From Chiloscyllium plagiosum (lineage: Eukaryota): 20,944 bases of DNA. Positions 561-20,477 of this stretch are shown here, in pieces. How positions within the stretch are numbered: position 1 is the stretch's first letter; the number at the start of each line of letters is the position of its first letter. The stretch is taken from assembly GCF_004010195.1 (NCBI RefSeq), contig NC_057719.1, forward strand, positions 24,023,629-24,044,572, written 5' to 3'. The notes under the pieces are model-generated. The model did no database searches and had not been told where the DNA came from. It saw only the letters and a program-made list of their open reading frames with translations. The translations under genes and the position numbers were made by a program.

Positions 561-901
561 CTTGTCTTCAATAGACTGATACAACTTATCATACTTACAT
601 TATTAGCTTGTTTTCATAGTTTTGTTCCTACCCCCTTTCTGCATATCCAGGTTTCTCTTTTTATTTGTATATTATTTTCTTCAGCTTAATATTGCCTTTT
701 AGATCATGAGGACGTAGGAGAGAGTGAGGGGAGAGAAAAGATAAATTATTATGAAATGAAAACCGAGAAATTGGTGACTCTTACTGCTCCACCTACATAA
801 TACTCCGACCAACAATAGTCAGAGTACGAACGATTATCTATAAGTTAAAAATTTAAAAATGAGTAATTATAGATCTGCAATAATTGCTTATTTTTGTTCA
901 G

Positions 902-1172
902 GGAAGTGGATGGCTCCCTTTGATCCAAATGGTACCAAGGATGGAATATTCTATATAAATGCATATACCAGAATCAAAGTACCAATGATGTTCAAAGAGG
1001 ACACTTTTTTCTTAACACATGACAAGACACATTCTTGTATAATACTGAAGATTCCATACCAAGGAAATGCAAGTATGTTGGTGGTGATACCAAAAAATGG
1101 AGAATATCTACATGTGGAAGATGAGCTAACAACAGAATTATTAGCCAAGTGGATCAAAGCATTGAAACCTAA
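902..1172 (+). CDS. SERPINA10: Serpin (protein Z-dependent protease inhibitor-like), internal coding exon, 271 bp; upstream exons lie outside the window
   Basis: Acceptor tttttgttcag|GG at 901/902 and donor AA|gtatga at 1172/1173. Translation GKWMAPFDPNGTKDGIFYINAYTRIKVPMMFKEDTFFLTHDKTHSCIILKIPYQGNASMLVVIPKNGEYLHVEDELTTELLAKWIKALKP carries serpin motifs GKW..PF, VPMM and PYQGNA, and resembles human ZPI as I recall it. Phase 1 start and phase 2 end match the alpha1-antitrypsin-type (V2) intron pattern. Confidence 0.93.
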
Positions 1173-1689
1173 GTATGACTTTCAATTTTACAATCAAACA
1201 GTAATGGGTATGTCAAAATGCAATAGGTTACAACTGAGAAAAAGCGGCTATAGTGAGGCAAAGATTAACATACTGTTTTCAATGAAGTACTGTTCTTAAT
1301 TACAGCTCATTCTTCATTATTGGACTTAGAATTTACTTTATGTATCTTTGACATATGTGGAGCCGGACAGAAGTCTGAGACAGATTTATAGACCTAAAAA
1401 AAGCCTTAAGCATTCTTGTTATCACTTGTAACTTAATTATATCATTTAAATTTAATTTAATTCCAATTAAAATATATACTTGTTTTAGTAAGATATTAGG
1501 ATTTCTATGTTGAAATAATGATGAATAGTTAATAGCTTAAATGTGTTTTTTTTGGTAAATTGTGCATGTAGTTAACTCTACAGAAAAGTGGTTGGGTAAA
1601 TATTCATGTAGACTGGATATTTTTACTGTATGTTCTGGACTCATGGCAATGCTTGCAGAATCACTTTAATTGTCTATCTCTTATCTGCT

Positions 1690-2004
1690 TTTCTGTGGGT
1701 AAGGAAAACTAAAACTAGAGGGCATTGGTTTAAGGTGAGAAAGGAAAGATTTAAACAGGACCTGAGGGGTGACTTTTTTAATGCAGGGGGCGGTGTGTAT
1801 ATAGAATGAACTGCCAGCAGAAGTAGTGGAAGATGGAAAAATTACAGCATTTAATAGGCATCTGTACGGTATATGAATAAGAAGAGTTTAGAGGGAAAAG
1901 AGCCAAATGCTGACAAATGGGACAAGGTCGGATTAGGATTAATGGTCAGTGTTGACAAATTGGAATGAAGGGTCTATTTCCGGGCTGTATGTCACTATGA
2001 TTCT
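1690..2004 (+). mobile_element. CR1-type LINE 3' end fragment in the serpin intron
   Basis: aaaactagagggcat..tttaaggtgaga (TRGH.FKVR motif), gaatgaactgccag, and a CR1-type 3' UTR ending ...gctgtatgtcactatgattct. Confidence 0.8.
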
Positions 2005-2169
2005 GCTGTAAAATTAATCACTACTAACCACCTTATGATTATTTTGCGCAAATAGCAATTACTGAGTCAGTTGAAAGGATTAAAACCTTTTATCCACAGT
2101 ATGTAGGTTTAATAAGTTTCCTTCTCAGAAAAACTTATGTGAAATATTTTCAATTTCACATTCACATTT

Positions 2170-2420
2170 TACATTATGTCCCTAGTCCTAGATCCCCTAA
2201 TCAGCAGAAAATGTTTATCTATATCTACCTGATTTTTCTCCCTTAGTAGCTTGAATACTTCAACTAAATTATTCTTTAATTTCTAAATTTCTGGAGATAT
2301 ATCTATAATGTGAAATTTCTCTTTCTAATTCAACTCTTGGAATCCAGGTATCATTCTAGTAAATCTACTCACTTCCTCTTGAAACAAATCCATCCTTCCT
2401 AAAGCAGAATACCCAGATTT
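2170..2420 (-). mobile_element. Degenerate CR1-type LINE fragment
   Basis: Reverse complement resembles the CR1 RFTRMIPG...EVFK...TRGH region. Boundaries are approximate. Confidence 0.55.
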
Positions 2421-3439
2421 TTAAAAATCTGCTTATTATCACTATTTAAAATATAAATACATTCAGATTCAGATCAATGTAACTTAAAAAACAAATGCAA
2501 CTGAGTAACATTAAAAATAAAATCAAATTTAAGTATTTAATAGTAAAAAATAAAATTTAGTCAGGAAAAACTTCCTTTGTTGTCAATGAATTATCACATC
2601 ATGGTATTTTTATGGCTCATTCCTTTTTAGTGCAATTCACGAAATTTTGAATCACTGCATGTCAAACTCCATTCTCTGGAAATGAGGAGTAAAAAGACAA
2701 TATGTTTACATATCTTTTGTCAATGCTGGCTTGTGATCAGTTGCTGGAAGTGATCAAAATTACTTCAATTATTTTATTTTTCACTTCTCTATGTAAGAAA
2801 GTATCAGCTCCACTTGGCTCTTGTCCTCAACAATTTGACTGAAATCTGGAACCTGCCAGATGGCTGATTCAGATACTAATCTTCATCCTGTCGCTCGATG
2901 GCATAGCAATAATGGTTAACTGCTATGCTGCTTCGCTAATCTTTAAACCTAGATTAATTTTAAATTTTATTTTGAGAGTCATTGTCTTTTATTGAATCTA
3001 CACAATTTAATGATAATTTAATGATAATGAAATACCTTCAACTTACTAACATAGTGCATGAGTAAGGTTAAAGTTAACACAGAATTCTCCTTACATTTTG
3101 CAAATAATGCATCCAGTTTCCAGTTCTGAAATTCTTTTCCGTAGAGTGATGGTTATTTCTGATTTTGCAGAGTCCCTACCGTTATAAAGGGAGCATGTTT
3201 TAATTGGCATAGCTGGCAGCAGAACATTTACCATTCTGATTCCATTTCCAGAGTGCATTCAACTATATATTATATACATATATATAAAGGGAAAGGTATT
3301 TCTTGAAAAGCAGACAAGCTTGATTGCTGAGTTTGCAGTATCTGAATAGATTGTAATCAAATCGAAGTTTCTTTTGTGAAAAATGGCATTGACACACCTT
3401 ACTGTTCAGCATTGCATTTCTCACATTAGCTGTGCAAAA

Positions 3440-3550
3440 GGAAGCATGCCAGTTGGAGCTAAAGTGGGCAATAGAGTTGATGTATGGATAAGCCACGATT
3501 TAATTGAATACCAAACCAGGCTTTTGGGGGTAATGGGCTTCCTCTTGTTA
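3440..3550 (+). mobile_element. Very degenerate CR1-type 3' UTR remnant
   Basis: gataagccacgatttaattgaataccaaaccaggct...aatgggcttcctcttgtt resembles CR1 3' tails. Confidence 0.4.
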
Positions 3551-3886
3551 CTTTGTAAAGCCAATTGGAATAAAACAAACATTTTGTTCATTGAATATTT
3601 TCTACAATGAATCCATTTTTAAAAATGCAGAACATGCTATTAAGCACTCCATAATTGTCACAAATGTACAAGGAATTTTGCTTCACTAGTTTAGGCTGGA
3701 TACAAATGAGACTCCACAAGCAAAGATTTTGCTCTAGGTCTCAATCATCTATTCTTCCCTCATGATTCCAACATAAAATATTAACGTGCTCTATTACATG
3801 ACAATACATCTGAATAGCAATAACATTAAATGTTTTTGTTCTTAGTTTTCTGTTGCTTGTAAATCATGTTTATTTTCTTGTCCTAG

Positions 3887-4034
3887 GAAAATCGAATTAT
3901 ATTTTCCAAAATTTAAATTGAACAAGTCGTATGACATGGAAAGGAAGCTGAGACAATTGGGAATTATAACACCCTTCACAAACACTGCCAATTTTTCTGG
4001 AATCTCTTCATCTTACCATCTGAAGATTTCTAAG
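3887..4034 (+). CDS. SERPINA10: Serpin coding exon, 148 bp (absent from the ORF track)
   Basis: Acceptor ttcttgtcctag|G and donor AAG|gtacat. Translation (K)KIELYFPKFKLNKSYDMERKLRQLGIITPFTNTANFSGISSSYHLKISK has serpin PKFKL, LG and ANFSGIS motifs. It joins in frame with the previous exon (AA+G = Lys). Confidence 0.93.
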
Positions 4035-4161
4035 GTACATTTGTTCTGAAAATAGTCACTGAAACCATATCAATTTTTCTCCTGTTTGCTATGCTTATTT
4101 GAATATGGCAGGAGAAGGAGGAAGTAGCAACTGATTAATTTCATTTTGTTTATTTTTTCAG

Positions 4162-4353
4162 GTTATTCACAAAGCAACGATTGATGTGAATGAGAGAGGA
4201 ACTGAAGCAGCAGCAGTAACCAGTGTTTCAGCAGTGCCTTATTCACTTCCAACTGTCATAAAAGTGGACCACCCTTTTGTTTTCATGATATATGAAGAAA
4301 TAACAAACATGCTACTGTTTATAGGACGGGTGAAAGATCCCACCAAGAGTTAA
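4162..4353 (+). CDS. SERPINA10: Serpin terminal coding exon with reactive centre loop (absent from the ORF track)
   Basis: Acceptor tattttttcag|GTT. Translation VIHKATIDVNERGTEAAAVTSVSAVPYSLPTVIKVDHPFVFMIYEEITNMLLFIGRVKDPTKS* with stop TAA at 4351-4353. The hinge ERGTEAAA is of the inhibitory type, and counting from P17 Glu gives P1-P1' = Tyr-Ser (Tyr codon 4240-4242), typical of ZPI. Confidence 0.93.
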   Translation, partial: VIHKATIDVNERGTEAAAVTSVSAVPYSLPTVIKVDHPFVFMIYEEITNMLLFIGRVKDPTKS

Positions 4354-7110: not shown

Positions 7111-7839
7111 ACACTCAGTCCTATCCTACACAAACAGTTCACCAAATCTCTGACACCCACACCGAAGATTAAGCCCCTTGCTCCAGCAAAAATGGGGTCT
7201 GTTTGAAATCTGCAGAGACCGCAATTACCTGCTGGATTTGGGGCTTCTCTCTTCAGAGAGTCATGCCCTCTCCCTCCTGTTCCTTTTCATGAATACAGGA
7301 TTGTCAGAATTGGAGCAATCTGGGTTCTTCCAGCATTTCTCAAGGTCTGTGAAGGTCTTAGCTCCTGGTCAAGTAGGCATACATGCAGATTTTTAAAAAA
7401 CTTAGTGATGCGTCTGGTTCTCGAAGGATCCACAGCAATATTTAAAAAGATTATTAGATCATGAAATAATAGAATGGCAGGATCAATTTTCTAACTATAA
7501 TTGGCTAGGAGTATCACCTGTCCAAATGCTCTGGAATTCTCTTGCTAAACCAGTCCCTTTTTGGTTTTCAACCTTCCTCACCTCCTTTGATTCCCTGCTT
7601 AAAGTTCACCTCTTAGTTTTATGGGAAAATACGTGCAGTTTCAGGTGAGATATGGTGTTTTAATTTATTTAACGTTTTCTGTCTAGAAGTCATTGTTTGA
7701 CAGGCTTGGCTTCAATTATACAGAGAATACTTGTGAGAAATCTGGAAGCTCATGCAGGGAGCTTACAGCTGCTACTTGGGGTCTAGATTAGAATGGTGCT
7801 GGAAAAGCACAGCAGTTCAGGCAGCATCCGAGGAGCAGT

Positions 7840-7877
7840 AAAATCGATGTTTCGGGTAAAAGCCCTTCATCAGGAAT
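7840..7877 (-). ncRNA. Minimal hammerhead ribozyme motif, slightly decayed copy
   Basis: AUUC-CUGAUGA-A-GGGC-UUUU-ACCC-GAAAC-AUC|GAUUUU. Core boxes are intact, with one mismatch in stem II and one in the stem III palindrome. Confidence 0.6.
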
Positions 7878-8212
7878 ACAGGCAGAGAGCCTGAAGGGTG
7901 GAGAGATAAATGAGAGGAGGGTGGGTGTGGGGAGAAAGTAGCATAGAGTACAATAGATGAGTGGAGGAGGGGATGAAGGTGATAGGTCTTCAGGGCAGAG
8001 GAAATGACCTGGGAGTTGCAGTGGGAGAGGGACTCCTTGAGATTCTTGTAGAGAGAGGAGGAAAACTTCTTCAAGGCAGGCATCCTTGCAAGAGGATTCG
8101 CAGTAAGGTTAAAACTAACTAGGTAAAAACAATGACTGCAGATGCTGGAAACCAGAGTCGAGATGAGAGTGGTGCTGGAAACGTACAGCAGTTCAGGCAG
8201 CATTCAAGCAGT

Positions 8213-8250
8213 AAAATCGACGTTTCGGGCAAAAGCCCTTCATCAGGAAT
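8213..8250 (-). ncRNA. Minimal type I hammerhead ribozyme motif (PLE type), intact core
   Basis: Minus-strand RNA AUUC-CUGAUGA-A-GGGC-UUUU-GCCC-GAAAC-GUC|GAUUUU: conserved CUGANGA and GAAA boxes, a 4-bp stem II, and a loopless palindromic stem III (ACGU). Predicted cleavage between 8219 and 8218. Confidence 0.75.
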
Positions 8251-8432
8251 ACAGGCAGAGAGCCTGAAGGGTGGAGAGATAAATGAGAGGAGGGTGGGTG
8301 GGGAGAGAAAGTAGCATAGAGTACAATAGGTGAGGGGGGGAGGGGATGAAGGCTGCTACTTGGAGTATTAGCTGGTGGGAGCAGTCTGATCCCCAACCCC
8401 TTTGTCTTTGAATGGGGTAATGGGGTTAACCC

Positions 8433-8565
8433 AAGCCAAGGTTTTAGACTGCATAGCTCAAGGATTAAGGATGTACTTACACCAGTATGCACATTTAACG
8501 CATTACGCTGCTTATAAATATTTCTGTAGTAAGACAGTAAAAGGAAGTATGTGACAAAGGGAATC
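8433..8565 (+). repeat. Diverged ~130-bp direct duplicate of 9788-9920
   Basis: Shared colinear blocks ttttagactgcatagctcaa, ttacaccagtatgcacat, ttataaatatttctgtag and tgtgacaaagg. Confidence 0.85.
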
Positions 8566-8590
8566 AGCAGGAATCTCATCTGCTACTCTA

Positions 8591-8763
8591 GGACAAGGTC
8601 AAAAGTCACAGACACCAGGTTATAGCCCAAAATTTTATTTGAAATCTCAAGCTTTCAGAGCACTGTTCCTTTGTCAGGTGAAGGGACAGCACTCCAAAAG
8701 CTTGTGATTCCAAATAAACCTGTTGGGCTATAACCTAGTGTCATATGACTTTTGAACTTGCCC
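8591..8763. repeat. Imperfect ~170-bp palindrome, probably inverted termini of a second PLE family, with decayed hammerhead motifs
   Basis: The left arm (tcaaaagtcacagacaccaggttatagcccaa...caagctttcagagcactgttcctt) is reverse-complementary to the right arm (agggacagcactccaaaagcttgtgattccaaataaacctgttgggctataacctagtgtcatatgacttttga). The centre is at ~8678. Confidence 0.75.
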
Positions 8764-8812
8764 ACACCAGTCCAACACCAGCACCTTCGCATCATGGCTA
8801 ATTTAGGCCTAC

Positions 8813-9787: not shown

Positions 9788-9920
9788 AAGCCAGGATTTT
9801 AGACTGCATAGCTCAATCTGATTAAGGCCATATTTACACCAGTATGCACATCTAATGCATAACACTGTTTATAAATATTTCTGTAGCAAGACGGTAGATT
9901 AGGTCTGTGACAAAGGAATT
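9788..9920 (+). repeat. Diverged ~130-bp direct duplicate of 8433-8565
   Basis: Same colinear blocks as the first copy. Confidence 0.85.
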
Positions 9921-12504: not shown

Positions 12505-12544
12505 CTTCAAAAAAAAGAGATAATTTGCTTAAGTAAATAGTTAA

Positions 12545-13986
12545 TGAAGGTTGCTCATGTTGTCCCCCTGTACAAGAAGGGTAGTAGGGATATTCCGGGT
12601 AACTACAGACCAGTGAGCCTGATGTCGATGGTGGGAAAGTTGCTGGAGAAGCTACTGAGGGATAGGATCTATTTATATTTAGAAAAGAATGAGCTTGTCA
12701 GTGATAGGCAACATGGTTTTGTGCGGGGGAGATCGTGCCTTACCAACTTAATAGAGTTCTTTGAGGAAGTGACCAAGTTGATAGATAAAGGAAGGGATGT
12801 TGATGTCATATACATGGACTTTAGTAAGGCGTTTGATAAGGTTCCCCATGGTAGACTAATGGAGAAAGTGAAGTCATATGGTGTGCAGGGTGTTCTAGCT
12901 AGGTGGATAAAGAACTGGTTGAGCAACAGGAGACAGAGAGTAGTAGTTGAAGGGAGTTTCTCAAAATGGAGAAAGGTGACCAGTGGTGTTCCACAGGGGT
13001 CAGTATTGGGGCCACTGTTGTTTGTAATAATCATAAATGATCTGGAAGAGGGCACTGTTGTTTGCAGATGACACGAAGATTGGTGGAGTAGCAGAAAGCA
13101 TAAGGGACTATCAGAGTATACAGGAGGATATAGATAGACTGGAGAGTTAGGCGGAAAAGTGGCAGATGGTTTTCAATCCAGACAAATGTCAGGTGATGCA
13201 TTTAGGCAAGTCTAATTCTAGAGTGAATTATACAATGAACGGAAGAGCCTTGGGAAAAGTTGATGGGCAGAGAGATCTGGGAGTGCAGGTCTATTGTACC
13301 CTGAAGGTTGCTGCACAGGTAAATAGAGTGCTCAGGAAGGCATATTGTATGCTTGCCTTCATTGGACGGGATATCGAGTATAAGAGCTGGCAAGTCATGT
13401 TAAAATTGTACAAGACATTAGTTCGGCCGCATCTAAATACTGTGTACAGTTCTGGTCGCCACATTACCAGAAGGATGTGGATGCTTTGGAGAGGGTGCAG
13501 AGAAGGTTTACGAGGATGTTGCCTGGTATGGAAGGTGCTAGTTATGAAGAAAGGTTGAGTAGGTTACATTTATTTTCATTAGAAAAAAAGAGATTGAGGG
13601 GGGACCTGATTGAGGTTTACAAAATCATGAAGGGTATAGACAGGGTGAATAGAGACAAGCTTTTTCCCAGGGCGAAGGATTCAATAATGAAAGGTCACAC
13701 TTTCAAGGTGAGAGGTGGAAAGTTTAACGGGAATGCACGCGGCAAGTACTTCACACAGAGGGTGGTAGGCGTTTGGAATGCGTTGCCAGCAGCGATGGTA
13801 GAGGCAGGCACGGTAGATTCATTTAAGATGTGTCTGGATAAATGCATGAGTTGATGGGCAGTAGATGGATACAGATGCTTAGGAATTGCCTGACAGGTTT
13901 AGACAGTACATTTGGATCGGCTCAGGCTTGGAGGATGGAAGGGCTAGTTCCTGGGCTGTAAATTTTCTTTGTTCTTTCTTTGTTCT
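12545..13986 (+). mobile_element. Relatively young 5'-truncated CR1 LINE (RT domain plus 3' UTR), inactivated
   Basis: ORFs 12544-13071, 13166-13558 and 13477-13854 carry [53 protein letters not shown] and RLRGDLIEVYK. There is a frameshifting deletion just before FADD (~13060), a TAG at 13148-13150 and a frameshift near 13436. The tail is a (ttctttg)-type repeat. Confidence 0.95.
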
Positions 13987-15951
13987 ATCAGTATTATTCC
14001 ATAGAATGTGTTCTGCTATAATAATAAGAGGGATTGATAAATAGTTCTAGTTTTTTTTGTTAATAAGTTTGGTGACATTTGATTATTCTTATGCCTATAT
14101 TAAACTCAAGATTCTCCTTAAATCATTGGGATATTACAGTTGCCACAAAATGCATTGTGCGTTGTGACATTGAATGCTATAGGCATAGGTTTCTCATAAC
14201 TGCCACAAATCTCAACCTCACCAACTGATCTTTTTAATGGAGTTGCAGGTGGACCAAGGCAGAGTGCAACTGGGGTTGCACTATGCAGAAACCCCAGCTC
14301 AGATGCTTCCTACGAGGCAGTTCCATTAAGGTAAGTTGATCAGCAGAGACACACATTATGTAGCCACATTGCCCTCTGCATTTTAAACAGCTGTGAGGAA
14401 GGATGATTTTTTGACCATGATGATCAGCATTAGGTGATAATCAGAGGGAGCCCTGGGATAAAAAGTATTAAGCACAGGTGGTGTTTATTTGATTGAATTT
14501 TGCTTTAAAGGAATATTTTTTTGATTGAGCAGATAAGTGCCCTCCTCCTTCTCTGGCCCATACCATTGTAACTCGCTGAGGCATACTGGGATGTCTACCT
14601 CCCATATGTAAATGATCACAGGATCTCAGAGGCAGATGGAGAACTTTGCCTTTTCGAGCTGTGCGTTAAACAAATGAGAAGGATGAACGGTTGGAGCAGG
14701 TAGCCTAGCCCAAATTTGACGCTTAGCCAGCAATCACATCATTTATTTAGCTGCTATGACTTAACTCCCTTTTCAGATCAAGTGGCAGGTCAGATGACTG
14801 AAAAGCATAAAGAATAGTGAAGAATGACTAAAAGATCATTCAGGAGAAAGAAATTAAAGTTTGACAGGAAGCTAACTAGAAAAGTAAAAACAGTCAGCAA
14901 TTTCCACAAGTATATAAAAAGGAAGAAAGTAAATCAAGTCAGAAAGAGAGCGAGAGAGAGAAAATGGAGTTAATAATCATGGAATGGTACGTAATGAAGA
15001 AGGATTGATAACTGGTCTTGTAGTTAAGGATCCTCTTGGAAGGAGTGACCACAATGTGCTAGAGTTTCATATTCGGATTGGAAAAGTGAAGACAGAGTTG
15101 CATACAAGGGGTTTACTGTTGGGCAAAGACAATTATATAGGCTGAGAAAGGAGTTGGCTCGAGTGGACTGGGCAAAAATTTTTAAGGGCAGGACAGTTGA
15201 AGAACAGTGGTAAATGCTTAGGGAGATACTAAATACCTCTCAATTAAAATATATTCCTGACAGGAAGAGGAATTGTAAAAAGGTTAAAAATCATCCACGG
15301 TTTAATATGGAAATCAAGGATAACAGATAGGCAAAGACTAGGGTATATCATACTGCAAAAGTTAGTGGCACTCTGGAGGATTGGGAGAACTTTAAATGTC
15401 AGCAAAGGATTACTAAAAACAAAATCAAAAGAGTTAAGATTAATGATGAAAGGAAACTAGCAGAAAACATAAGCACTGATATCAAAAGCTTCTACAAAAA
15501 GGAAGCAAATAGTGAAAGCAAATGTTGGCCCTTCAGAGGATGAAAACGGTGAGGTAATAAATGGGAAACTCAGAAATGGCAGAGGCACTAAACCAATATG
15601 TTGTCTCTCTTTTCTCAGAGGAAGATAATTTCTTCTCCTTAACAAAACAGCTTCTACAGAGAAATTTGATGAAATTGCTATAACTAGGGAAAAGGTATTA
15701 AGTAAACTGATGGGATTAAAGGCAGGTACGCCTGATGGCTTGCATCCTAGCATATTAAAGGAGGTGGTAGCACAGATAGTGGATGCATTAGTTATGATAT
15801 TCCAAAATTCTCTGGATTCTGGAAAGGTACCAGTGGACTGGAAACATGCTAATGTGACACCCTTATTCAAAAACAAAGATGGGCACAAAATGAGAAACTA
15901 CAGACCAGTTAGTTTGCTTGACCTCTATGGTAAGAAAATTGCTGGAGTCAA

Positions 15952-16045
15952 TGGGTGGGTTGCGCTTCGGCAGGTCGGTGTGGACTTGTTGGGCCGAAGG
16001 GCCTGTTTCCACACTGTAAGTAATCTAAACTAATCTAATCTAATC
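15952..16045 (+). mobile_element. 3' end of an HE1-like elasmobranch SINE (CR1-derived tail) nested in a CR1
   Basis: gggtgggttgcgcttcggcaggtcggtgtggacttgttgggccgaagggcctgtttccacactgtaag followed by a (taatc)n tail. It splits the host CR1 reading LLES-IIKDDI. Confidence 0.75.
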
Positions 16046-16888
16046 ATAAAGGATGACATAACTAAACACTTGGAAAAACGAAGCTTAATTCACAAGTATC
16101 AGCACAGTTTCATGAAGGACAAGTCATGCTTGACAAATTTGGAGTTCTTTGAGGATGTAACCAGCAAGGTAGATAATGGATATCTGATGGGTGTGGTATA
16201 TCTAAACTTCCAAAAGGCATTTGACAAGGTGCCACTTAAAAGACTGATCTAGAAAGTTAGATTCCATGGGGTTAAAGATAGAGTATTGGTTTAGATAGAG
16301 GATTGGCTAACTGACAGAAAGCAGAGAACGAGGATAAATAGGTCCTTCTCTAACTATTGGGGTGTCACAGGGTTCAGTTCTCAGACCTCAACTATTTACA
16401 ATCTACATAAATGATCTGCAAGCAGGGACAGAGTGCAATATAGCAAACTTTGCAGGTGTTACTTAAATAAGTAGGAAATGAGGACATAAACAGTTTACAG
16501 ATGGATATTGACAGGCTAGGAGAATGGGAGCCAGAATCTGGCAGGTGGGGTTTAATGTGGGTAAGTGCAAGGTTATCCATTTAGCTGGAAAATAAAAGGG
16601 CAAGTTATTATTTTAAAATGAGAAACACACTCAAATGTGCATCAGTACAGAAGGATATGGGCATCTTTGTGCTTGAATTGCAGAAAGTGCGTATGCAGGT
16701 GCAGCATTATAACAAGAAAGCAAATGAAATCCTGGTACTTATTGCAAAAGAATTGAATTAAAGAAGTAAACAAGTGTTGTGCCAATTATCTAAGACGTTA
16801 GTGAGACCACGCCTGGAGTTTTGACCTCCTTACTAGACAAAAGATGTGGTGGCACTGGGGGTAGTTCAGAGGAGATTCACCAGGTTGA

Positions 16889-17116
16889 GGTGGGTGTGTG
16901 TATGGAATGAGCTGCCAGAGGAAGTGGTGGAGGCTGGTCCAATTACAACATTTAAAAGGCATCTGGATGGGTATATGATTAGGAAGGGGTTACAGCGATA
17001 TGGGCTGGGTGCTGGCAAATGAGGCTAGATTAATTTAGAATTTCTGGTTGACATTGACAAGTTGGACTGAAGGGTCGGTTGCCATGCTGTACATCTCCAA
17101 GACATTGTGATTCTAT
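16889..17116 (+). mobile_element. Short CR1 3'-end insertion nested in the older CR1
   Basis: tggaatgagctgccagaggaagtggtggaggctgg... plus a 3' UTR similar to 1790-2004. It interrupts the host reading FTRL|IPGMK. Confidence 0.75.
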
Positions 17117-17393: not shown

Positions 17394-18099
17394 AAAGTGG
17401 GATAAAGGGCTATGGGGAGCAGGCAGGAGATGGCGGATCAGGCTTGAGGGTCTGAATTGCCTATGGCAGCTCTTAAGTCCTATGCTCCTAGTGGTAGAAA
17501 ATATGGAAATGGTGGATGAAATGAACAAATATTTTTCCTGTCTTCACCACAGGGATAGAAAAAAACCCAGTAACGGTTCTAAGTCAGGAGGTGGAATGGA
17601 GAGAGGAATTTAGTGAAATTACAGTCACAAGGGAAGTGGTACTAAGCAAGTTGATGGAGCTGTGGTCTGGGCTGACACATCTTCATATCCAGATAGACTA
17701 TCCTATCTTTTATCCTAGGTTGATAAAAGAGGTTGCTTTTTGAGGAAACAGATGTGTTGGTTAATTTTCCAAAATTTACTGGCTATAAAGGTTCCATCAG
17801 ACTGCAAAGTAGCAAATATAACTCTTCCAACCAATAAGGCAGGGATGCAGAAGTTAGGAAAATGGTGCGGATGGAGTTAAATCAACGATTAAAGAAGTAT
17901 AGTTGGGTACCTAGAAAAACTCTAAGTCATTGGGAAAGGTCAGCATGGTTTTGTAAAAAGAAAATTATGTTCAATTTGTTGAAGCTCTTTGAAGCAGTTA
18001 CTCACGCTGTGGATGAGAAGAACCCACTGACTTATTTGGATCCAGAAGGTATTTGCTTAAAAATGTGTTGCTGGAAAAGCGCAGCATCAAAGGAACAGG

Positions 18100-18137
18100 A
18101 GAATCGACGTTTCGGGCATAAGCCCTTCTTCAGGAAT
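18100..18137 (-). ncRNA. Minimal hammerhead ribozyme motif in the PLE terminal repeat
   Basis: AUUC-CUGAAGA-A-GGGC-UUAU-GCCC-GAAAC-GUC|GAUUCU. Predicted cleavage between 18106 and 18105. Confidence 0.72.
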
Positions 18138-18302
18138 GGGGAGGATGTGCCAAGCAGGCTAAGATAAAAGGTAGGGAGGAGGGACTTGGGGGAGGGGCGT
18201 TGGGAATACGATAGGTGGAAGGAGGTTAAGGTGCGGGTGATAGGCCGGAGAGGGGGTGGGGGCGGAGAGGTCGGGAAGAAGATTGCAGGTCAAAAAGGCG
18301 GT

Positions 18303-18804
18303 NNNNNNNNNNNNNNNNNNNNNNNNNNNNNNNNNNNNNNNNNNNNNNNNNNNNNNNNNNNNNNNNNNNNNNNNNNNNNNNNNNNNNNNNNNNNNNNNNN
18401 NNNNNNNNNNNNNNNNNNNNNNNNNNNNNNNNNNNNNNNNNNNNNNNNNNNNNNNNNNNNNNNNNNNNNNNNNNNNNNNNNNNNNNNNNNNNNNNNNNNN
18501 NNNNNNNNNNNNNNNNNNNNNNNNNNNNNNNNNNNNNNNNNNNNNNNNNNNNNNNNNNNNNNNNNNNNNNNNNNNNNNNNNNNNNNNNNNNNNNNNNNNN
18601 NNNNNNNNNNNNNNNNNNNNNNNNNNNNNNNNNNNNNNNNNNNNNNNNNNNNNNNNNNNNNNNNNNNNNNNNNNNNNNNNNNNNNNNNNNNNNNNNNNNN
18701 NNNNNNNNNNNNNNNNNNNNNNNNNNNNNNNNNNNNNNNNNNNNNNNNNNNNNNNNNNNNNNNNNNNNNNNNNNNNNNNNNNNNNNNNNNNNNNNNNNNN
18801 NNNN
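18303..18804. other. Assembly gap (502 N)
   Basis: Run of N inside the PLE. Confidence 1.
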
Positions 18805-20477
18805 ACGTCTGAGGGGAAATTGCGGTCTTTGAAGAAGGAGGCCATCTGGGTCGTTCGGTATTGGAATTGGTCCTCCTGGGAGCAGATGCGGCAAAGGCGA
18901 AGGAATTGGGAATATGGGATGGCGTTTTTACAGGGGGCAGGGTGGGAGGAGGTGTAATCTAGGTAGCTGGGGGAGTCAGTCGGTTTATAGTAAACGTCCG
19001 TGTTGATTCGGTCATCCGAGATAAAAATGAAGAGGTCTAGGAAGGGAAGGGAGGAGTCTGAGATGGTCCAGATAAATTTGAGGTCGGGGTGGAAGGTGTT
19101 AGTAAAGTGGATGAATGCCCTCCACCTCCTCCATGAGTTTGACTTCCCCGGTCCCCAACGCCTTATCTTACACATCTCCTTCCAGAAGGTATCTGCCAAA
19201 GTACCATATGAAAGGTTATAAAAGGGCAGAGCAGTAGCTTATTGTAGAGGCGATAACATATTAGCATTGATAGAAGATTGGTCGAAAAGAGAAGGGAGCA
19301 AAAACAGGTCTTTTTCTGGTTGGCAGGATGTCGAGTTCTGCAGGGGTTGTGCTGAGGCCTTAATTTTTAATAATTTATATCAACTTGTTAGATGAGTGGA
19401 ATGTAGGCATGGGAGCTAAATTTGCAGAATACGCAATAGGTAGGAAAGTATGCTGTGAAGAGGAAGAATGCACACGTTTGAGTGAATGGGCAAAAAAAAC
19501 TTGCAAATGGAGTATAACATGGGAAAATGTGAAGTTGTTCACTTCAATGGGAAGAATAAAAAAGGTGAGTACTTAAATGAAGAGTGATGGCACAATTCTG
19601 AGGTGTGGAGGGATCTAGGTGTTCTAGTGCAAAAGTCACAAAAATAAAGCACATAGGTACAGCTAGCGATTAAGTCAGTTAATATTCTTCACTATGGAAA
19701 GAATTGAACATAAACTTAAAGTTGTTATGTTTCATTTATACAGAACACTGGTGAGATTACATTTTAAATACTGTGTGGACATTTGGTCTGCTTATTTAAA
19801 GGGGAAAAGATTTACCAGATTGATACGGGGACTGAGGAATTTGTCTTGTGAGAAAAACTTGGAGAGATTGGAATTCTGAAAAACGAGAGGTGACTTGATT
19901 GAAGCATATAAGATCCTGAGCGATCTTGACAAATTGGTTATGAAAAAGGATTTTGCCTTTTGTCAGTGAGTCCAGAACTAGGACTGTTCATTTAAAATTT
20001 AGAAGTCACCCTTCTAGGACAACAATGAGCAGATTTTTTTCTCAGCATATTGTGAGATTTTGGAACTCTGTTTCAGAAGGCAGTAGAGGTGGGATCATTG
20101 AATATTTTTAAAGGTGAAGGTAAATAACTTTTGGCTTAATTAAAATGTTTTTACATTTCTATCACTAATCTCTGGTAGAAAGTGCAAACAGGTGACTGAA
20201 TCAGTATTATAAACTACACTAAGTCAGAATCCTGTGCTGTTGATAGGGAGGGAGGGCACAAGATTATATCCAAGGACTGAAACATTTGGCTTATATGAAA
20301 ATTACTATTTTGGGTAAAGACTGTACAAAACAGTTGACAGTTATGAAGCAATTACAATCAAAGTTGTGGCAACTTCAGGAAAGTTGGGCAAGGTAAGTGA
20401 ATGGAAGCATGTTTATTAAAAAAATCTTATTTATTGGCCTTGCAAGCCAAAGAACAAATTTACATGCATGGACTTAC

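Follow-up and report, generated by a model that had tools for sequence, protein, structure and literature searches.

An old, internally deleted copy of a Penelope-like element with two hammerhead motifs in the genome of the shark Chiloscyllium plagiosum

The insert and its genomic surroundings

The window analysed here is a stretch of 20,944 nt from the Chiloscyllium plagiosum genome (contig NC_057719.1, positions 24,023,629 to 24,044,572 of the forward strand), and all coordinates below refer to it. Its left part carries on the plus strand the last coding exons of a serpin gene (844-4353), which may resemble SERPINA10; they lie near 900-1170, 3890-4000 and 4170-4353. The insert described in this work (7783-8351) lies about 3.4 kb beyond the serpin stop codon, the last coding exon ending near 4353, and is therefore outside the coding introns of this gene. 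Directly to the right of the insert, a segment of about 107 nt is duplicated (8433-8539 and 9788-9896, 1,356 nt apart, 86-93% identity). Just downstream there is also a palindromic repeat (8581-8800) with arms at 8611-8630 and 8723-8742 and an inner hairpin at about 8635-8717, which is probably a head-to-head stub of another Penelope-like element (PLE) family. It contains on the minus strand a degenerate hammerhead-like motif ending in GAAAGCT (8650-8677), a weak one that was matched in 24 of 100 shuffles; the Rfam microRNA hits in the same repeat were far below the gathering score. Broken fragments of a LINE-type reverse transcriptase (RT) are located on the plus strand at 12541-13854, 15629-16033 and 16885-16970. 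Another PLE fragment lies on the minus strand at 18066-19115. It retains C-terminal RT coding (41% to protein P0026, see below) and contains a 502-nt run of N (18303-18804); it shares only 57 nt with the insert and includes a hammerhead core (18106-18133) that has CUGAAGA.

The insert is 569 bp long and is bounded by two 15-mers, 7768-7782 and 8352-8366, which are identical at 14 of 15 positions; a 14/15 match was reached in only one of 1,986 random pairs of 35-nt windows. These are the two copies of the TSD, the first standing at the 3' end and the second at the 5' end of the element, which reads on the minus strand. Alignment of 7781-7979 with 8157-8352 showed 182 of 199 aligned positions to be identical (91.5%), with 14 substitutions and one 3-nt gap. 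The sequence-only reading of this DNA had described a 569-bp insertion with a 15-bp TSD carrying one mismatch and two direct repeats of about 200 bp, and these descriptions were borne out.

The order of parts along the minus strand is a 5'-truncated upstream pLTR (copy B, 8157-8351), a tail (8125-8156), a leader (8084-8124), the first 32 codons of an ORF (7988-8083), a deletion, and the last 205 nt of a PLE, which form the downstream pLTR (copy A, 7783-7987) and have no tail behind them; aligned pieces from other copies also stop at 7988. The hallmarks of PLEs, namely the partial tandem that forms the pLTRs, a tail at one end and a TSD, are all present. Counted in units of 373-376 nt, the insert contains about 1.5 units, and no tandem repeat of this period was reported by TRF, run with settings differing from those of a recent preprint on retrozymes (10.64898/2026.07.22.740005).

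The spacer between the repeats was found to be partly coding. Minus-strand 8083-7988 encodes 32 residues that correspond to the N-terminus of a PLE ORF; 30 of 35 positions are identical to the N-terminus of protein P0002 from Chiloscyllium punctatum, and the residues also match N-termini of proteins from Hemiscyllium (H. ocellatum), Stegostoma (S. tigrinum) and Rhincodon (R. typus). Residues 36-162 of P0002 match P0026 (E 5.7e-7), a protein of 882 aa with a C-terminal GIY-YIG domain in which PADKG and YIDD are visible, presumably the RT motifs of PLEs. Another protein, P0025, has the same N-terminus as the spacer ORF and also aligns just before the RT region of P0026 (E 3e-13). By this chain of homology (P0002, P0025, P0026), in which no RT domain was named by Pfam, the spacer reads as the start of a PLE ORF standing behind a tail and a leader, and the derivation from Penelope proposed earlier is upheld. 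The earlier statement that the insert has no RT or endonuclease coding also holds, as no intact RT plus endonuclease ORF is contained in the insert and only 32 PLE codons are left, with the one amendment that the spacer is coding over these 32 residues. A search with residues 1-170 of P0002 returned no full-length ORF among 139 candidates. Scans for exact patterns of the ORF start or the hammerhead gave no match in metagenome_contigs or viral_contigs, collections in which shark DNA is not to be expected, and this carries no weight as evidence.

The boundary between tail and leader was placed by a depth step near 8124, between the bins 8106-8123 and 8124-8141, seen in three DNA-type runs, in which the tail segment has about 6- to 9-fold the depth of the leader; the upper boundary of the leader, which precedes the ATG, is approximate. 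The tail so defined is about 32 nt long and is found only behind the internal pLTR. PLE tails are described in the literature (including PMC11167929) as 30-40 bp long and present at one end only.

The two hammerhead cores

A search of the window with the pattern CTGANGA-N(6-30)-GAAACRTH gave three matches, all on the minus strand (7846-7873, 8219-8246 and 18106-18133), against a mean of 0.04 in shuffled sequences; none of 100 shuffles reached three. The two cores reported earlier in the insert are thereby confirmed. Rfam, searched at E values up to 10, returned 7 weak matches, none of them a hammerhead, and for this reason we base the identification as ribozymes on the pattern match together with the published description of minimal hammerheads (min-HHRs). 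According to Cervera and De la Pena 2014 (PMC4209133), the min-HHRs of PLEs have an extra base between positions 9 and 10.1, a G10.1-C11.1 pair and a palindromic 15.2-16.2, and the insert resembles them in these features.

Core B (8219-8246) is consensus-like: it consists of CUGAUGA, an extra A, a 4-bp stem II and GAAACGUC, with the nominal cut after 8219. The conserved core, G10.1-C11.1, the extra base after A9 and a palindromic, loopless stem III are all found in it, in agreement with the earlier assignment to minimal type I hammerheads, and fold prediction gave pair probabilities of 0.95-0.99 for its stem II. Core A (7846-7873, nominal cut after 7846) is damaged, having ACAU at stem III, where the palindrome is missing, and a C-A opposition in stem II; both substitutions had been pointed out by the earlier reading. 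From cut site to cut site the two cores are 373 nt apart, precisely the distance claimed.

It had been proposed that one transcript supplies both halves of a double hammerhead and thereby releases a 373-nt monomer. In the model, a double hammerhead of B and A is fully nested, each core cutting the site of the other, so that the first part of the proposal is topologically possible. The energy model, whose values are no measure of activity, scored the B-B structure at -10.3 kcal/mol, B-A at -0.3 and A-A at +7.2, and in this geometry the A site carries a C-A mismatch at 15.2-16.2. Release of the monomer needs both cuts and the A site is damaged, and it is therefore unlikely from this copy; as modelled, the insert probably cannot release the 373-nt monomer, and at most weak cutting at 8219, with none at 7846, is to be expected. 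The predicted fold of this monomer was no better than that of shuffled sequences (z -0.40). The fold of the whole element, in which the double hammerhead lies 29 kcal/mol above the ensemble, was dropped as proof, as an intact B-B also lies 14.3 above the best dimer fold. Dimer cleavage is reportedly the subject of Lunse et al.

Age of the insertion and the deletion junction

Four of the 24 sequencing runs listed were aligned to 7620-8156, which covers the left flank, repeat A and the spacer and does not include repeat B; they comprised three contig runs from organisms A, B and C and one RNA run (X21). In each contig run, one contig of single-copy-like depth spans from the left flank to 23-24 nt inside the element, differing from the window by 7, 1 and 7 positions, respectively, in 186-187 nt. 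The insertion is therefore common to all three organisms, and it is old. The two repeats differ by 14 substitutions in 196 positions (K2P 0.076); if they started identical, the age of the insertion would be about double that of the split from organisms A and C, an estimate that becomes an upper bound if two RNAs were copied.

Part of the decay can be assigned to this copy. At 7857, 96-97% of the aligned DNA depth from other copies reads C, and the stem II mismatch of core A is thus private decay; at 7848, C is read in 41-49%, so loss of the CpG palindrome is common. These depths include other PLE families and are not copy numbers. In organism B, the intact stem III palindrome base at 7848 makes up 65% of the RNA depth and 49% of the DNA depth, possibly because younger copies are transcribed more.

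The deletion junction joins ORF codon 32 to the 3' end of the element at 7987..7988 (minus strand), where base 7988 fits both sides; protein homology stops at 7988 and aligned pieces from both sides end there. None of the 24 pieces listed, of 208,917 aligned, bridges 7988. Seven of these 24 end at 7984-7989, two of them simply ending and five continuing with 8-26 letters that do not fit, so that wherever letters past 7988 exist (5/5) they diverge there. The junction form is not dominant among related copies, and the piece listing indicates no more than this. Depth in the junction bin was discarded as a test, because bridging and non-bridging records both contribute to it. For the reading frame that crosses the junction (P0001), no protein of 48-154 aa sharing three words with it was found, and the one longer protein match covers the N-terminus only; likewise, none of 59 database hits gave a credible alignment across the junction, both being weak tests. 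A gappy extension of P0004 beyond the junction was treated as alignment noise. Splicing as the cause of the deletion seems unlikely: neither the residues that come after codon 32 in relatives (Leu-Phe/Leu) nor the one base in common looks like a splice join.

Other joints were seen close by. Among the 15 listed of 270 joints are different short-cuts that connect the 3' end with the ORF start: that from 7949 to 8007 occurs in 2, 1 and 5 contigs of the three runs, and that from 7950 to 7988 in two runs, with 1 contig in one and 4 in the other, the shorter sides being 22-30 letters with unknown letters between, and repeats can create such joints. They suggest that internal deletions recur with differing breakpoints, and they are possibly sister mini-elements of about 320-340 nt, the first of them in all three organisms. 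For some of these joints the summed depth is about 5-9 times that of the single-copy flank (91.5 vs 9.9 in run X1; 115.6 and 158 vs 24.5 in run X12), and with depths up to about 9 times the flank, short derivatives could multiply in small families. A further joint, from 7877 to 8121, is present in contigs of all three runs (4, 10 and 2) and leads from the tail directly to a pLTR that starts 4 nt before the hammerhead core; these contigs suggest tandem units of about 133 nt. Loose ends at 7877 amount to 570-789 records per run. Units with this joint may be better retrozyme candidates than the 7783-8351 insert.

The neighbouring joints, with as many as 5 contigs in a run and present in all three organisms, would also fit a small non-autonomous family in which an internally deleted master PLE is copied repeatedly in trans, the templates being linear or tandem transcripts left uncut, with neither cleavage nor circles required. 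The R2 SIDEs provide a precedent (PMC6765202), and the unit retains the ORF start along with pLTR and tail, a region of the sort needed in cis in the anole element Poseidon (PMC11167929). We consider such a family unlikely, though to be taken seriously, since no listed piece bridges 7988 and the weak protein searches yielded neither a homologue of near length nor an alignment across the junction.

The RNA run, a poly(A) single-cell library of which about 2% was read, gave 2,303 aligned reads, 62 of them at >=99%. Reads of the pLTR were on both strands, with no depth in the flank and no pile-up of starts or ends. Such a library would miss circles, and the run therefore says nothing about them. 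A search of sequencing runs listed no RNA run that contains the sequence. Joints going back by 361-376 were dropped as evidence of circles, as any pLTR followed by its tail yields them. A read joining 7846 to 8218 recreates the repeat sequence in its ordinary form, so that only variants specific to one copy could make it diagnostic.

Origin of the insert and comparison with known elements

We concluded that the anatomy of the insert is real and its origin ordinary: it is a PLE copy of old age that has lost its interior and in which one hammerhead is damaged. Probably it is a single old carpet-shark insertion of an endonuclease-bearing PLE that lost its ORF after codon 32 through a template jump, a one-off or low-copy by-product. 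The layout of published endonuclease-bearing PLEs with min-HHRs (PMC4209133; Craig et al., 10.1101/2021.04.23.441226; Arkhipova et al. 2013, PMC3846280; Frangieh et al. 2024, PMC11167929) is the same, with a 5'-truncated pLTR and a tail before the ORF start, a 3' pLTR and a TSD. The insert differs in that its ORF is deleted after codon 32 and only 373 nt separate its hammerheads, where published PLEs have about 3 kb. The spacer of tail and ORF start and this shared layout support the proposed origin, and the joints 7949/8007 and 7950/7988 speak for deletions that arose more than once and in different forms. Each of the two pLTRs carries its hammerhead as a passenger, of the usual type found at the ends of such elements; the spacing of the two needs no retrozyme, because any PLE deleted in its middle gives it.

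The insertion could have arisen as follows. PLE protein supplied in trans would nick the target site, and reverse transcription would start on uncut PLE RNA at an internal point, about 63 nt downstream of the hammerhead site. Having copied 205 nt, it would stall just past a C/U-rich tract and, with a microhomology of 1 base, jump to codon 32, either in the same PLE RNA or in another one. The leader, the tail and the upstream pLTR would then be copied up to a second stop at nearly the same point of the tract, and later decay would have damaged core A. Both cut sites lie intact within the insert, and the template was therefore either linear RNA that had not been cut or a circle; a linear cut monomer cannot have served. 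The upstream pLTR starts 8-9 nt inside the point equivalent to the junction, which argues for one cause of both ends, as the end of the C/U-rich tract may be a shared stall or RNA-start site. In anole Poseidon, reverse transcription starts internally and defines the tail, hammerhead mutants have no effect on insertion in vitro, and the main template is uncut RNA (PMC11167929).

In another explanation, the insertion was of a full-length PLE, whose middle was removed afterwards by a deletion at the DNA level. The locus is old enough for this, and the 1-base overlap fits end joining. PLEs are typically roughly 3 kb long, and out of roughly 3 kb such a deletion must end by chance 8-9 nt from the start of the upstream pLTR, a less likely coincidence than the one a circle has to assume (see below); we regard this course as very improbable.

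The insert shares much with the non-LTR retrozymes of metazoans (Cervera and de la Pena 2020, PMC7229834; Li, Clavereau and Pollet 2026, 10.64898/2026.07.22.740005). These are likewise related to PLEs, lack mobility coding, and have a type I hammerhead per unit and a long TSD, and the unit of 373-376 nt is retrozyme-like in size and content. The preprint describes retrozymes from 20 of 31 vertebrates, among them its one chondrichthyan, for which the mean consensus is 363 bp, and argues for their origin from PLEs. The earlier reading was aware of no described shark family of this kind; our literature search found no paper on this particular element, which the supplements of the preprint may hold. 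Against this likeness, the insert has only about 1.5 units where two complete units are the criterion, one core is damaged, its hammerheads are minimal whereas those of PMC7229834 are canonical, and its unit includes the ORF start, while the preprint matched Xenopus retrozymes to pLTRs.

A true non-LTR retrozyme would have arisen by double-hammerhead cleavage of an ancestral transcript, with a 376-nt monomer circularised and then copied 1.5 times round by PLE RT. The two tandem cores, the nested topology and the 1.5 units agree with this, as do the axolotl retrozymes, for which dimer cleavage and circles of 330-350 nt are proven (PMC7229834), and the chondrichthyan report. The axolotl hammerheads, however, are canonical, min-HHR dimers cleave weakly (PMC4209133), and 8 of 9 Xenopus dimers stayed uncleaved, only one being cut (10.64898/2026.07.22.740005). 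The anole PLE hammerhead required protein for cutting, and in RNA-seq no reads start or end at its site (PMC11167929). Core A is damaged, TRF gave no tandem of the unit period, and a second-round stop at most 10 nt from the junction has a chance of about 5% if stops are uniform, unless the same stall is assumed. We therefore think it doubtful that the insert is a retrozyme in this sense. A wider version is a long shot: carpet-shark PLE mini-element families, formed by internal deletion with pLTR, tail and ORF start kept, would spread as hammerhead-cut circles of 320-376 nt, with the insert a 1.5-round copy and a snapshot of the birth of a retrozyme, and the neighbouring joints its sister families.

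Some observations could count against a by-product present once or in few copies. Given that 24 of 208,917 pieces and 15 of 270 joints are listed, a family numbering tens to hundreds could lie beneath the much more abundant parent, and the elevated depth of other joints could mean that short derivatives multiply. An insert of 1.5 units is also predicted by more-than-unit copying of a circle (PMC4209133), and a unit of 373-376 nt lies near the mean of 363 bp given for the retrozymes of one chondrichthyan (10.64898/2026.07.22.740005). R2 SIDEs resemble the insert in bearing a ribozyme and in having lost the ORF by internal deletion with the ends kept; they differ in being R2-derived, with an HDV-like ribozyme, and proven to spread in trans (PMC6765202). 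A by-product fossil of a known kind remains, in our judgement, the most likely identity of the insert.

As a single decayed by-product the insert matters little. If its junction proved to be multi-copy, it would represent a concrete route from a PLE to a retrozyme, by an internal deletion that keeps the ORF start, and this route, if true, would complement the pLTR-tandem route proposed in 10.64898/2026.07.22.740005. It would also offer a short natural substrate on which the cutting and circularisation of PLE RNA by minimal hammerheads could be tested.
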